Below are positions 19,245 through 24,215 of a DNA stretch of 64,000 nt, one piece after another. The first letter of the stretch is position 1. Every line of letters starts with the position of its first letter. The translations under genes and the position numbers were made by a program. The notes under the pieces are model-generated. The model did no database searches. It worked only from the letters and a program-made list of their open reading frames with translations, and was not told the DNA's origin. The stretch is from Mucilaginibacter sp. (GTDB lineage: Bacteria; Bacteroidota; Bacteroidia; Sphingobacteriales; Sphingobacteriaceae). The stretch spans positions 54,026 through 118,025 of the forward strand of contig JAQBOA010000056.1 of NCBI GenBank assembly GCA_028288305.1, in the 5' to 3' direction.

Positions 19245-19507
19245 TGTATTGATTTTTAGGTGAGAAATGTAAATAATTCATCCGCCATTCGATGGACAAT
19301 TAGCGGCGAATTTACAAAAATTACCACTAATTGATAACAGCGTTTTTGATAAATGTTATTTGGAGATGTTCTAAATAGGGGTTGGGGATTATTTAAGCTG
19401 TCCATTTCTCCACGCGTCATTGCGAGGTACGAAGCAATCTCTACAAAGGATATTACCGTGATGCATATCGTTTAGGCATAGTTCAGAGATTGCTTCGTAC
19501 TCGCAAT

Positions 19508-20579
19508 TGTAAGGGTTTAGTAAATCGGTAATGGAATAGGCAATTATTTTTTGTTGTTTAGGGAGGCCATATCGATAGGTTTTTTGCCATTAATGCCTTG
19601 ATGAGGCCTTTCCCAATTATAATAGACCAGGTATTTAAGCAGCTCATCTTCGAGTTCTTTAAAGCTGTCAAAGTCGGTATCCTCAATCAAGTCGTCTTTA
19701 AGCGTTCGCCAGAAACGTTCAACCTTTCCATTGGTTTGCGGGCGGTATGGTTGGATATAACGGCGCTTGATACCTGTCTCAATTAGCATCCTTTCGAACG
19801 GATGGTTTTTTTTGTTCTGGCTGATTGCCGGGCCGAATTCCGGGCCGTTATCGGTGATTATCTCCTCGAACTGGATGCCAAACTCCCGTTTGAGCGCCTG
19901 CATGCAGCGCATAGCAGTAAACATGGTAGTTAAAGCGGTGATGTCTTCCATTACTTCTGCCCAGGCCAGCCGGGAGTAATCATCAATCACACAAAGCAGG
20001 TAAAGCTTCCTGTTTTGCCCCCTGATAACACTTTTACTCAAGTGATGACAGTCAATATGTCCTAACTGGCCCATACGCTCCTTGATGATTTTTCGCTTTA
20101 CCTCTCTATCAGCTGCCGTTAAACGGTTTTGCTGATAACGCTTCAGGATATTATATACCCCGGATGCCGATGGCGTAAATTTATCTGATTTTTGTTTAAG
20201 CTGACTGGCTATTTCAAACTTATTACAGCCACGCTGGCGTAGTTCCAGCACCTGCTGCTCATCCTGTAAAGAAGGCTTGCGGGTACTATATCGCGGGCCA
20301 CGCTTACCCGGCAACAGGTCCAGCTCATTGCCTGACTGCTTAAAACGGTTGTAGTATTTTAAAAAGCTTCTTGCATCAGTATCATGGGCACTATAAAAGT
20401 CCTTGACCAAACGAAAGGTCGGATGTTCGCCACTTTTTACCTGTTCATACTCTTTAATCAGGAAGCGGTATTTGTTCAGGTAATTCCGCTTTAGGGTTAA
20501 GTCATTTGTATTGATTCGCATAACTCTTAACTTTAATTATATAAAGCTAATTCTGTTACCGAATTATCTGACCTTTACA
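19508..20579 (-). mobile_element. IS481-family insertion sequence (1072 bp)
   Basis: TGTA...TACA ends, 34-bp imperfect IRs (24/34 by hand count), 5-bp direct repeat GCAAT at 19503-19507 and 20580-20584. Confidence 0.92.
19544..20521 (-). CDS. IS481-family DDE transposase (intact)
   Basis: GHID (D), ITDNGPEF (D), PQTNGKVERFWRTL (E), YNWERPHQGI. Confidence 0.92.
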   Translation of the reverse strand: MRINTNDLTLKRNYLNKYRFLIKEYEQVKSGEHPTFRLVKDFYSAHDTDARSFLKYYNRFKQSGNELDLLPGKRGPRYSTRKPSLQDEQQVLELRQRGCNKFEIASQLKQKSDKFTPSASGVYNILKRYQQNRLTAADREVKRKIIKERMGQLGHIDCHHLSKSVIRGQNRKLYLLCVIDDYSRLAWAEVMEDITALTTMFTAMRCMQALKREFGIQFEEIITDNGPEFGPAISQNKKNHPFERMLIETGIKRRYIQPYRPQTNGKVERFWRTLKDDLIEDTDFDSFKELEDELLKYLVYYNWERPHQGINGKKPIDMASLNNKK

Positions 20580-20600
20580 GCAATGACAAATAGGTATGGC

Positions 20601-20637
20601 GTTGAAACCCCGCTCTCCCAAGGGAGGGAATCGCACG
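20601..20637. repeat. REP-like family H (CCCCTCCCAAGGGAGGGAA type)
   Basis: GGGAGGGAATCGCAC is the exact reverse complement of 55394-55408; related arms at 20761-22246 and 55380-55512. Confidence 0.75.
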
Positions 20638-20785
20638 GGTCTTGCTTTTTTATCATGAAAATCCTAAGACGGCAGAGCCCTCTTGAACGCCATTAAAAAA
20701 CAAACAATAGGTGAAAAATCCTGTGAATCCTGATTCAGACAATGAGTGTTGATGCATGGCGTAGAAACACCCCCCTGCCCTCCTC

Positions 20786-22228
20786 GTGACCGTTGCGCAA
20801 CCAACCCAGATGGAGCTAAAAAAGCGTAGTCTGGAGTTTTTAAGATCATAGTCGTGAGACTATAAAATGTTCTTTGAAATATTGATTAAAACCAAGACAG
20901 CGATTTTATTGCATATTGTTGTCCAAATCTGCTTAAAATGCTATCAAATGCGTTATTTATGCAATTTGCGATCTGTTTTTGAACCACTTGTATTGGCTTG
21001 AATTTATATTTAAGTAGTTTTTTTAGATTATAGGCGATAGCGGCCATGAGCATACATTTGTTTGCTTGTTTGATTCCTTTGGTATTGATTCTTTTTAAGC
21101 CTGTGTGGTTGATTAAAGAACCGAATACAGGCTCAACAGTACTGGATCGCAGGCGTTTCATCTGTTTTCCCTTTCGGCTTTCAATCCGTTGCTGCATGTA
21201 TTGATATAGTTGTTTATCTATAGAATCGCTGATCTTTTTAAAGCCTTTGGCATTTGCACAGCTACCTTTAAGCGGGCAATGTTTACAATCACTAATATTA
21301 GATTCATATATCCTTTTTTGAATGGTTGGTTTTTCATAGGCAGATTCGATACGCCTGAAAGGTAGGTGTACTCCCTTTACACAGGTATACCTGTCCTGTT
21401 CGGCATCATAGTTAAACCCTTCCTGTTCCCGTGAGTGTTTGTAGTTTCCCGGGTTGGGGATATATCATCGGTTTACCCGGTTTCATCGTTAAGCGTGCAT
21501 CTGGATCTGACGGGCTAAAATATGTCTGATTGGTTGGTGCGGGTTTGTCCTGATCGTCTTTTTTACTGTCTTTTGGTTTTTCCGGCGGTATGGGTTCGTC
21601 TTCCTCAATGTTGTCATTTAATTCCCGGGTAAAAACAGAAGCATCTTCCATTACCATCCTTTCAATCATACTATGCTTTGAGGCATTTGCCGGTATTAAA
21701 GCACTGTCGATAGCTTGCCGTTTACCGGAAATCAAGCCTTCGTCAATACATAACTTTAATACTTGTTTAAATAGGGCTACAAATTGCTCTTCACCATAAA
21801 GCTTACGGGTGCGGCTTAAAGTTGAATGCCATGGCAAACCTTCTCCAAGATCATACCCTAAAAAATAAAGAATATCCATTCGCATGCCTGATGTGCTGAC
21901 GATACGACGGTCACTGGTAATGTTTTCAAGATAGCCTACCAGCATAAGTTTCATAAATACTACCGGATCAATACTCTTTTGACCTTCCTTGCCATAATAC
22001 TCTGTGGTAGCCTGGTATAGAAACTTAAGTTTAAGTAGATCCTTTAAACGACGGTAAAAGTTATCCGCCGGAACGTGGTCCGAGAGCCGAAATTGTATAA
22101 ACAATTTTTCCTGATATGATTTCTTTCCTTGCATAGGCTAATATACTAAAAATCAAAGTTTTAATCAATATTTCAAAGAACTTTAATTGTAAGTCTTCAT
22201 CGACTTACTTTAGTTGTGCAACGGTCAC
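20786..22228 (-). mobile_element. IS1182-family element, internally deleted (1443 bp)
   Basis: 16-bp IRs GTGACCGTTGCGCAAC / GTTGTGCAACGGTCAC (15/16); 5-bp TSD TCCTC at 20781-20785 and 22229-22233. Confidence 0.9.
20886..22134 (-). pseudogene. IS1182-family transposase, split by internal deletion/frameshift
   Basis: N-part: GQKSIDPVVFMKLML...WHSTLSRTR...QAIDSALI...DPDARL..KPGKP; C-part in another frame from IPNPG through RSSTVEPVFG...AIAYNLKK. Confidence 0.88.
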
Positions 22229-22386
22229 TCCTCAAGGAGGGAACCCTTTGCGCACGTGCTTCGACAGGGCTACCCATGACATGTTTGTTGATCTGAAACC
22301 ACAAAAAGGGTGTCATGCTGAGTAATCTATATTTTACCAAATAACCTCATTGAAAATGACAGAAAAAGTTGGGAGCTTTAGGAAAG

Positions 22387-22554
22387 AAAGCAACTTATGG
22401 CAGCGTAGCAGTCGTCCTCATGGTGTTTGGTATCCATGCCTGAGTTTTGCTTCAAGGAATAGCGTAATACATTTTGGTGATACTGTATCAGCAGCATTCC
22501 CGTATGGCAGCGTGCCCTTTATTCTTATCGCTTCCTTGAGCCATAAGTTGCTTT
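22387..22554 (+). ncRNA. Candidate IS110 bridge-type RNA in left non-coding end
   Basis: 15-bp perfect closing stem (22387-22401/22540-22554) enclosing two sub-hairpins with internal loops; position typical of IS110-group ncRNA. Confidence 0.5.
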
Positions 22555-22580
22555 ATTGTTTAACAATTAAAAGTAAAGTT

Positions 22581-23899
22581 ATGGCAAAAGAAACAATTTT
22601 TGAAACAGTACATGAAAATGTTGCGGGCATTGATATTGGTGCCGAACAGATTTTTGTATCTCCTGATGGAAAAGAAGTAACCGTTTTTGAAACCTTTACT
22701 TCGGGTTATCATGCGTGTGCGCTTTATCTAAAGGAAAAGGGGATTAAAAAGGTAGCGATGGAAGCAACTGGCATATATTGGATAGCCTTATACTTTTTAC
22801 TGGAAGAATTAGGGATGATGGTATGCCTGGTTAATCCAAAAGAAACCAAGCAGGTGAAAGGCAGGAAAACAGATGTAAAGGATTGCCAGTGGATACAAAG
22901 GCTGTTTACGGCAGGTATCTTACGGCATAGTTTTATTCCGGAAGGTAAGTATATGGAACTTCGTATGTTAGTTCGGGAGCATCTTGATATCATCGATATG
23001 GGCAGTACTTACGTTAGCAAAATGCAAAAATGCCTGGAACTAATGAATATTAAACTCAAAGAAGTTATCAGCCAGATACATGGTGCCAGTGGTATAAGAA
23101 TGATCAAATCAATACTGGGCGGTAACCGTAGTAGTGCCAGTTTACTGAAGCTTTGCGATGAACGTATACAAAAATATAAGGGGGAAAAGGTATTGAAAGC
23201 ATTGGAGGGCAGCTATAACGATACCTATCTGTTCATGTTGCAACAAAATATGGAATTATGGAAAATTCATCAGAACCGGATAGAAAAGATCGATACAAAG
23301 ATCGCGCAATTACTGGACGAATTGAGCATGGACAAGGAGGAAGTGCCCACAGGGGAAACGAAACGGATACGTCATCATGCGCCGAACATAGATGGTCTCC
23401 ATAGCACTATGGCTCGGTTATACGGCGTTGATCTCAGCAGCATTTCGGGAATGAACGATTATACGGTATTGCGGTTGATCGGAGAAACAGGAGTGGATAT
23501 GAGCCATTTTCCAACCTCCAAAAACTTTATAGCCTGGTTAGGTCTTTCTCCTAAAATGCATAAAAGCAGAAAGATAAAAAAGAATGTAAGAGGTACCCCG
23601 TGTAATCCTGCCGGCCAGATATTCAAAGAATGTGCTCAAGGGCTTATGAACAGTAAGTTCATCGCTATCGGTGCTTTTATGCGAAAGCTCAGGGGGCGGA
23701 AAGATTCAGGCGTGGCCATAAAAGCTGGAGCAAGAAAACTGCATTAGCCTATTACAACGCATTAACTAAGGGAATAGCCTATGTAGAACAAGGCACAAAG
23801 CAATATGAAGAACAAATTAAAAGGAGAGAATTGGCATCATTAAAGAAATTAGCTAAAAAGTACAATATGCAACTGGTTGAAAATCAAATAGCTGTATAG
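22581..23899 (+). pseudogene. IS110-family DEDD recombinase with frameshift near C-terminus
   Basis: AGIDIG (D), AMEATGIYW (E), KTDVKDC (D..D); ORF stops at 23747 but shifted frame continues ALAYYNALTKGIAYVEQG...IAV* to 23899. Confidence 0.88.
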
Positions 23900-24162
23900 T
23901 GTGTCATTGGCAGGTCCTCGAACCATGTGCGCAAAGGCACGACGTTAATGTATTAACGCTAAACAATGCGTTCAGGCCATCCCACATGGTTCGAGTACCT
24001 CACCATGACACTCCCTTTGTCATTTCTCCTCCAGAGTTTCCTAATTTTATCACTGAGCATGACAGCGCTTTTTTATACTACTTCACTCAAATCATACAAG
24101 GCTTCACTTTTAAAAAATCAGCTAAACCAGCGAAAATCAACTTAATCAGCGGTTCAGACAAA

Positions 24163-24215
24163 GGTGTGCCAAGTTGTGCCACCCTGCACCGGGTGCACCG
24201 GTTAGCAGCTATACA
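24163..24215 (-). repeat. Repeat family G (TGTA...CCGGTGCACCCGG...GGGTGGCACA)
   Basis: Reverse complement aligns with 45724-45778. Confidence 0.7.

Follow-up and report, generated by a model that had tools for sequence, protein, structure and literature searches.

Three unrelated insertion sequences, each in its own palindrome, within a REP-like cluster beside acnA in Mucilaginibacter

Why do three insertion sequences (ISs) of unrelated families lie within a single intergenic spacer of a Mucilaginibacter genome, each of them inside a different palindrome? The spacer separates acnA from a gene for a beta-propeller/phosphoesterase protein. It belongs to the window studied here, a stretch of 64,000 nucleotides (contig C73, positions 54026-118025) from an assembly of 4.9 Mb in 109 contigs that is 90.7% complete. 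It is highly probable, in our assessment, that the spacer is a cluster of palindromes akin to repetitive extragenic palindromes (REPs), and that it was struck independently by three ISs, each of which would bring its own built-in specificity for one palindrome type. The insertions would persist because extragenic palindromes are harmless places for an element to sit.

The acnA spacer and its three elements

The start of acnA (19244) and the stop of the phosphoesterase gene (24261) are separated by 5016 bp, and removal of the three elements together with one copy each of the duplicated GCAAT and TCCTC leaves exactly 900 bp. The first-pass annotation of this DNA had given the elements as 1072, 1443 and 1591 bp and the remainder as about 900 bp, and had placed each IS inside a different palindrome: the IS481-like element in its class A, the IS1182-like element in its class H and the IS110 element in its class I. 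Pattern searches reproduced the boundaries and lengths exactly, the remainder was found to be built of repeated palindromes, and all three placements were confirmed. The parts are the following.

16980-19244, minus strand: acnA (Pfam Aconitase)
19416-19507: palindrome A, left part, with the left arm at 19416-19442 (GTCATTGCGAGGTACGAAGCAATCTCT), then the loop and, at 19485-19507, the greater part of the right arm
19508-20579, minus strand: IS481-like element, 1072 bp, with an intact transposase open reading frame (ORF) at 19544-20521, 325 aa
20580-20587: palindrome A, end of the right arm, beyond the IS481-like element
20778-20785: hairpin H, left half (CCCTCCTC); the restored site folds as a hairpin
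20786-22228, minus strand: IS1182-like element, 1443 bp, defective, with a split transposase (ORFs 21412-22134 and 20886-21197)
22229-22241: hairpin H, right half (TCCTCAAGGAGGG)
22310-22322: palindrome I, first 13 nt of the left arm (GTGTCATGCTGAG, which ends in the core AG)
22323-23913, plus strand: IS110-family element, 1591 bp, recombinase ORF 22581-23747
23914-24011: palindrome I, remainder, with the left arm continued at 23914-23929, then the loop, then the right arm at 23983-24011
24261-26693, minus strand: beta-propeller/phosphoesterase gene

The units of the 900-bp mosaic recur throughout the genome. Palindrome A has arms of ~27 nt (perfect blocks of 11 and 16 nt with one unpaired G) around a 42-nt loop, and its arms have 55 and 18 genomic matches. 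The arms of palindrome I are 29 bp long, flank a loop of 53 nt and have 25-32 genomic matches; eight further intact copies of its left arm, GTCATGCTGAGG, occur elsewhere in the genome. H is a 7+2+7 palindrome from a family of ~100 CCCTC..GAGGG hairpins. A tag, GTCATTGCGAG, heads several palindrome subfamilies that differ in their inner arms. It is present 80 times in the assembly against 1.3 copies expected (81 with the IS481 site restored), an abundance for which chance is excluded, and it is extragenic, with only 9 of the 80 copies in stop-free stretches of at least 150 aa, which cover 83% of the genome. The related pattern GTCAYNCNGAG has 27 genomic copies, nine of which read GTCATGCTGAG. 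The genome contains 153 palindrome clusters. The units of the mosaic are thus REP-like: palindromic, of high copy number, extragenic and clustered. They are longer than classical REPs (20-40 bp).

Two described REP classes were considered for these units. The four full Y1_Tnp genes of the genome have no class A, I or H motif within 700 bp, which rules out membership in the REPs that flank REP-associated tyrosine transposase (RAYT) genes. In CGTC-tagged REPs, the CGTC tetranucleotide stands at one end of the palindrome (Di Nocera 2013, PMC3733652). CGTC is present at the window copy of GTCATTGCGAG and at the copy at 43020, but the base that precedes the tag is T in 67 of the 80 copies and C in 12; because TGTC predominates, the units mostly fall outside this class.

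No second copy of any of the three elements was found in the genome. Multi-copy ISs break this assembly, leaving contig ends with 127-bp overlaps, and these three were assembled through; therefore we regard them as truly single-copy, and copies in relatives were tabulated in place of copies within the genome. Two of the three are defective, the IS1182-like element through an internal deletion and the IS110 element through a frameshift. A composite transposon is ruled out because none of the ISs is present twice. Other IS110-family genes of this genome sit at contig starts (C33:1-1389 and C84:1-1400) and share 127-bp overlaps with other contigs, and contig C73 itself ends inside a multi-copy IS110-family element (134269-134401).

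Target sites of the three elements in relatives

The transposase of the IS481-like element matches Pfam rve, rve_3 and HTH_32 and, at 325 aa, has the full length seen in relatives. Its clearly best NCBIfam model is IS481 (NF033577), at 193 bits and under the 224-bit cut-off, and the element has the size and ends of the family (~1-1.3 kb, TGT inverted ends, a short duplication). Specifically, its imperfect inverted ends start with TGTAA (TGTAAGG... and ...CCTTTACA, that is, TGTAAGG/TGTAAAG), and the 5-bp duplication GCAAT is found at 19503-19507 and 20580-20584. Relatives of 65-80% identity occur in 53 of the 151 genomes of the genus. From these we compiled 22 full-length copies in 15 genomes (70-80% identical, all with different flanks), and every one of them lies in GTC-ATTGC-GAG, the GTCATTGCGAG tag, or in a one- or two-base variant of it, with identical 5-bp duplications in 21 of the 22. 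Orientation relative to the tag is split 11:11, and the flanking palindrome subfamilies differ. We propose that the IS481-like DDE transposase would integrate in this 11-bp site in either orientation and duplicate ATTGC; the use of so strict a site in both orientations suggests that the tag is recognised directly by the protein. One copy, G156a (alignment A2), has flanks that do not match (left GTCATTGC, right GCAATGAC); its two 'duplications' are reverse complements of each other, as would be expected after recombination between copies or loss of a palindrome interior.

The ends of the IS1182-like element are inverted repeats of 16 bp (GTGACCGTTGCGCAAC), and TCCTC is its duplication. The matches by which the IS1182 family is recognised (NF033551 / DUF772 + DDE_Tnp_1_6) are present; its fragments align with positions 3-257 and 425-487 of the 488 positions of NCBIfam NF033551, each scoring below the cut-off because the gene is broken. 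About 230 bp that are present in all relatives (~1615-1680 bp) are missing from the window copy near 21464/21465. Relatives are found in 30 of the 151 genomes, and the flank set comprises 10 copies flanked on both sides, which come from 7 genomes including that of the window. All ten lie in a CCCTC..GAGGG hairpin, with restored sites that fold at -12 to -28 kcal/mol, and in nine of them a duplication of 2-6 bp spans the hairpin loop, the window copy being the exception. Two further copies, cut by contig ends, retain a left flank only, and this is of the same hairpin type. The IS1182-like DDE transposase may therefore be pictured as integrating in the loop of a CCCTC..GAGGG hairpin and duplicating the 2-6-bp loop region.

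The IS110 recombinase matches PF01548 (DEDD) and PF02371 (Transposase_20) and scores 171 bits against the 140-bit cut-off of the NCBIfam 'RNA-guided transposase' model (NF033542). A 1-nt frameshift stops the window ORF at 388 aa, with the shifted tail extending to 23899; relatives have 439-440 aa. The element has neither inverted ends nor a duplication, and AG is common to both junctions (CTGAG-TAATC ... GGCAG-GTCCT). Within the genus, three of three copies sit in class-I palindromes, namely the window copy and both copies of the complete genome G030, which are 76% identical and stand directly after CTGTCATCCTGAG and CTGTCACCCTGAG. The wider subfamily, at 57-79% protein identity, includes Chitinophagales, Agriterribacter and Cyclobacteriaceae, and M. 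dorajii has the highest identity (79%) among the named matches listed. The left junctions of this subfamily that were recovered by script end in GTCA-N4-5-GAG without exception (18/18), and the right ends that were read are all GTCATnGGnAG; one copy ends ...GGCAC. Insertion would proceed by recombination at the AG core right after GTCATGCTGAG. The right end of the window copy, GTGTCATTGGCAG (23901-23913), resembles the element's own target GTGTCATGCTGAG (22310-22322) at 10 of 13 positions, and this GTCAT...AG likeness of donor end and target is found across the entire subfamily.

Relatives of the IS110 element show three unusual arrangements. In a G030 relative (L005 3030-3118) the last 89 bp are tandemly duplicated, leaving two GTGTCAATGGCAG right ends in a row, which looks like aberrant recombination at the right-end core. 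A distant relative in a Bacteroidales metagenome-assembled genome (MAG; L109 2170-2300) has its left end directly after a right end and is either a tandem pair or circle-junction-like. An Agriterribacter copy (L095, from ~2145) is interrupted near its 3′ end by an element encoding a helix-turn-helix transposase-like protein, a nested insertion.

Target choice by the IS110 element may be guided by an RNA of its left end.

22385-22560, plus strand: candidate bridge RNA, structured, with an outer stem and two modules

The fold, derived from an alignment of 11 lineages, has 44 pairs, 20 of which show compensatory changes. One module carries a target-like block, CCATGCCTGAG (~22435-22445), and the other a donor-like block, GTATGGCAG (~22501-22509). 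The target-like block is sense-identical to the left target plus core, and across lineages block and cognate target agree at 36 of 60 variable positions, compared with 20.4 for shuffled pairs (P<5e-5). The donor-like block equals the element's right end plus core, with 6-7 of 8 positions matching, and the two co-vary in the Cyclobacteriaceae lineage (CGGTAG in both). We propose that this bridge-type RNA is the guide, one block copying the left target and the other the right end. We infer that the IS110 specificity is read by RNA and that those of the IS481-like and IS1182-like elements are read by protein.

Across the three families, none of the 22 IS481-like, 10 (plus two with a left flank only) IS1182-like and 18 IS110 copies was found away from a target site. 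The first-pass annotation had proposed that palindrome classes are partitioned among the ISs as safe harbours. The safe-harbour part is a putative reading in terms of selection. The partition is a proposal that copies at non-REP sites in relatives would contradict; such copies were sought and seen for none of the families, and the partition is therefore real. It follows from each element's own target specificity and not from a property of the locus. The palindrome halves themselves are not carried by the elements, because flanks differ between copies and IS481-like copies occur in both orientations.

Several observations weigh against this account. The specificities rest on relatives of 65-84% identity, with one copy per IS in this genome. 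The IS1182-like element had been placed at the centre of H, and it does lie inside H, but its TCCTC duplication is 2-3 nt off centre; the hairpin it occupies is a shorter member of the CCCTC..GAGGG family. For this element, moreover, recognition by sequence and recognition by structure are not separable on the sites at hand, because all targets belong to one sequence family. As for the candidate bridge RNA, the target-like block of the window copy has one C more than the actual site, and the block occupies the 3′ side of its loop; the left target guide of IS621 occupies the 5′ side. Several registers were tried by eye for right-target and right-donor guides, and none was consistent across lineages. 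An Rfam scan of 19200-24300 returned two chance microRNA-like hairpin matches and no bridge RNA family.

The history of the locus and its shared occupation

The remainder of the spacer consists of the following.

19245-19390, minus strand: acnA upstream region (promoter/5′ untranslated region), conserved by blastn in 25 metagenome contigs, one of them 95% identical
20613-20628: short unoccupied hairpin CTCTCCC-AA-GGGAGGG, a relative of class H
20702-20761 (approximate): repeated block with the small palindrome TGAATC-CT-GATTCA, 24 genomic matches
22245-22281: solo arm (CCTTTGCGCAC...CATGACA) similar to a class-I right arm, an inverted match to 23930-23940, 7 genomic matches
24163-24215: repeated block with CACCGGGTGCACCGG, 9 genomic matches

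The first-pass annotation had named five palindrome classes; A, H and I were recovered, and the blocks at ~20702-20761 and 24163-24215 are probably its classes B and G, respectively.

It had also proposed looking for an empty form of about 900 bp in sister strains. None was found in the 40 nearest genomes, two metagenome scans or exact-protein look-ups, and in none of those 40 genomes does acnA adjoin this phosphoesterase gene. Instead, in three relatives from the genus and on a 95%-identical metagenome contig (L204), acnA is followed by a polysaccharide deacetylase gene, tolC and hlyD. The genome studied here has this block of three genes in inverted orientation ~20 kb from acnA (39323-42974), and close by, at 43020-43073, another GTCATTGCGAG palindrome. 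In all 25 metagenome contigs, similarity to the region upstream of acnA ends at 19376-19393, just before palindrome A, a position that by these alignments is the left limit of the mosaic and a putative synteny breakpoint. The presumed breakpoints (19391-19416 and 42975-43073) both abut GTCATTGCGAG-tagged palindromes. Together, this suggests an inversion of ~23.6 kb with both ends at tag-bearing palindromes, which would have been palindrome-mediated. The position of the mosaic beside acnA thus appears to result from the inversion, and under this reading no 900-bp empty form is to be met at acnA in the available relatives. Between acnA and the deacetylase gene, contig L204 (698-1031) carries a class-B-like repeat and an ORF of ~70 aa, neither of which has a counterpart in this genome.

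Target specificity accounts for the choice of palindrome and not for the shared locus, a further point against our account as a complete one. Only one of the 153 palindrome clusters offers all three target types, and it is the one that holds all three elements. Were each element to choose at random among sites of its own class, the chance of this co-location would be ~9e-6, a post hoc figure because the window was flagged for its clustering. The co-location may reflect a permissive sink, a joint arrival, or last copies that survive in the most harmless place. That the locus is a privileged sink, in which something beyond the motif makes this cluster collect or retain ISs of any family (ready extrusion of a cruciform upstream of a gene with strong transcription, exceptional tolerance of insertions and protection from deletion are candidates), draws on exactly this coincidence of three single-copy elements in the only suitable cluster. 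We consider it unlikely: besides the post hoc nature of the probability, in relatives with two of the families (G030, G061, G131 and G009) the copies lie on different contigs or at least hundreds of kb apart, a dispersal from which it follows that specificity explains the palindrome and not the locus. The narrower claim that structural accessibility or exceptional tolerance makes the mosaic a true multi-family sink seems to us distinctly improbable; if true, the cluster would be to bacteria what transposon-trapping loci are to eukaryotes. Either way, the co-location is a testable puzzle about where insertion sequences survive.

The rearranged surroundings of acnA bear on a different possibility, that the three elements arrived together or were joined by rearrangement, through replacement from an IS-rich donor or through the ~23.6-kb inversion. 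The inverted deacetylase block, the further GTCATTGCGAG palindrome and the inversion end at the edge of palindrome A would fit such a history, yet an inversion shifts the whole mosaic and does not build it from parts. In each palindrome the duplication or core of its element is intact, a sign of insertion in situ; furthermore, base composition (GC unremarkable) gives no sign of foreign origin, and no donor locus was found. We regard joint arrival, too, as rather doubtful. An assembly artefact, in which metagenome contigs of different strains were joined through shared palindromes, might be suspected of a genome that resembles a short-read MAG (109 contigs, 90.7% complete, contig ends with 127-bp overlaps). 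Chimeric joins would not, however, yield matching 5-bp duplications or a shared core around complete elements in split palindromes; at 27-29 bp, moreover, the arms fall far short of the 127-bp overlaps, and the complete genomes of relatives show the same anatomy of insertion. On the target duplications in particular, chimeric assembly is rejected as extremely improbable. Independent insertion of each element into its own class of palindrome is the reading that we carry forward.

Comparison with known systems

The IS481-like element shares with the IS481 family of Bordetella (IS481, IS1002) a single-ORF rve transposase of ~1.05 kb, TGT ends and a short duplication within a preferred motif. IS481 prefers NCTAGN as its target. 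The IS481-like element, in contrast, enters an 11-bp tag that belongs to a repeated palindrome family, and duplicates 5 bp. The searched literature held no link of the IS481 family with REPs, and REP targeting by this family appears to be unreported there. As a DDE transposase that is naturally site-specific and strict for its 11-bp target, the group's enzyme may be of practical interest.

A precedent for the IS1182-like element is IS1272, an IS1182-family element that targets stem-loops, its transposase inserting into inverted-repeat or hairpin structures (PMC5678879). IS1272 replaces hairpins of unrelated sequence and leaves no duplication, whereas the copies described here have a single target family, CCCTC..GAGGG, retain the hairpin and carry a 2-6-bp duplication. 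The model proposed for IS1272 includes a 'pathway c' that duplicates the loop only (PMC5678879), and this prediction is the pattern of the IS1182-like copies. For the family, they would add a second case of hairpin-loop targeting, one restricted by sequence.

The IS110 element resembles the bridge-RNA systems of IS621 (PMC11208160, PMC11208158) in its DEDD recombinase, lack of inverted ends and duplication, 2-nt core and two-module structured left-end RNA, with candidate guide blocks of which one equals the left target with its core and the other the right end with its core. IS621, too, inserts into a REP. In its bridge RNA, the guides for left target and left donor reproduce the top strand, core included (PMC11208160, PMC11208158). 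The differences are a core of AG rather than CT, guide blocks at 3′ positions in the loops, a frameshifted copy, and a right end (GTCATTGGCAG) that resembles the target (GTCATGCTGAG). With its AG core, the subfamily may serve as a natural collection of paired guides and targets.

REP targeting by ISs is a known phenomenon, established for the IS3, IS110, IS4, IS256 and IS5 families (PMC1525189); the IS481-family specificity is apparently new. The ISs surveyed by Tobes & Pareja 2006 (PMC1525189), which include IS1397/ISKpn1, IS621, ISPpu9/ISPpu10, ISPa11 and ISRm22, likewise belong to unrelated families and are highly selective, with all or nearly all copies flanked by palindrome halves. The marks of their 'type 1', palindrome halves on both sides and a high association ratio over at least four copies, are both found here, the ratios being pooled across genomes and not taken from one genome. 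The present case would add Bacteroidota, and among ISs the IS481 family, to the known range of REP-targeted transposition, and would show one repeat landscape shared out between an RNA-guided recombinase and two DDE transposases guided by protein. It differs from the surveyed cases in its Bacteroidota host, in its long palindromes (arms of 27-29 bp, loops of 42-53 nt), in two families, IS481 and IS1182, that are absent from the survey's list, and in the presence of three families and three targets side by side.

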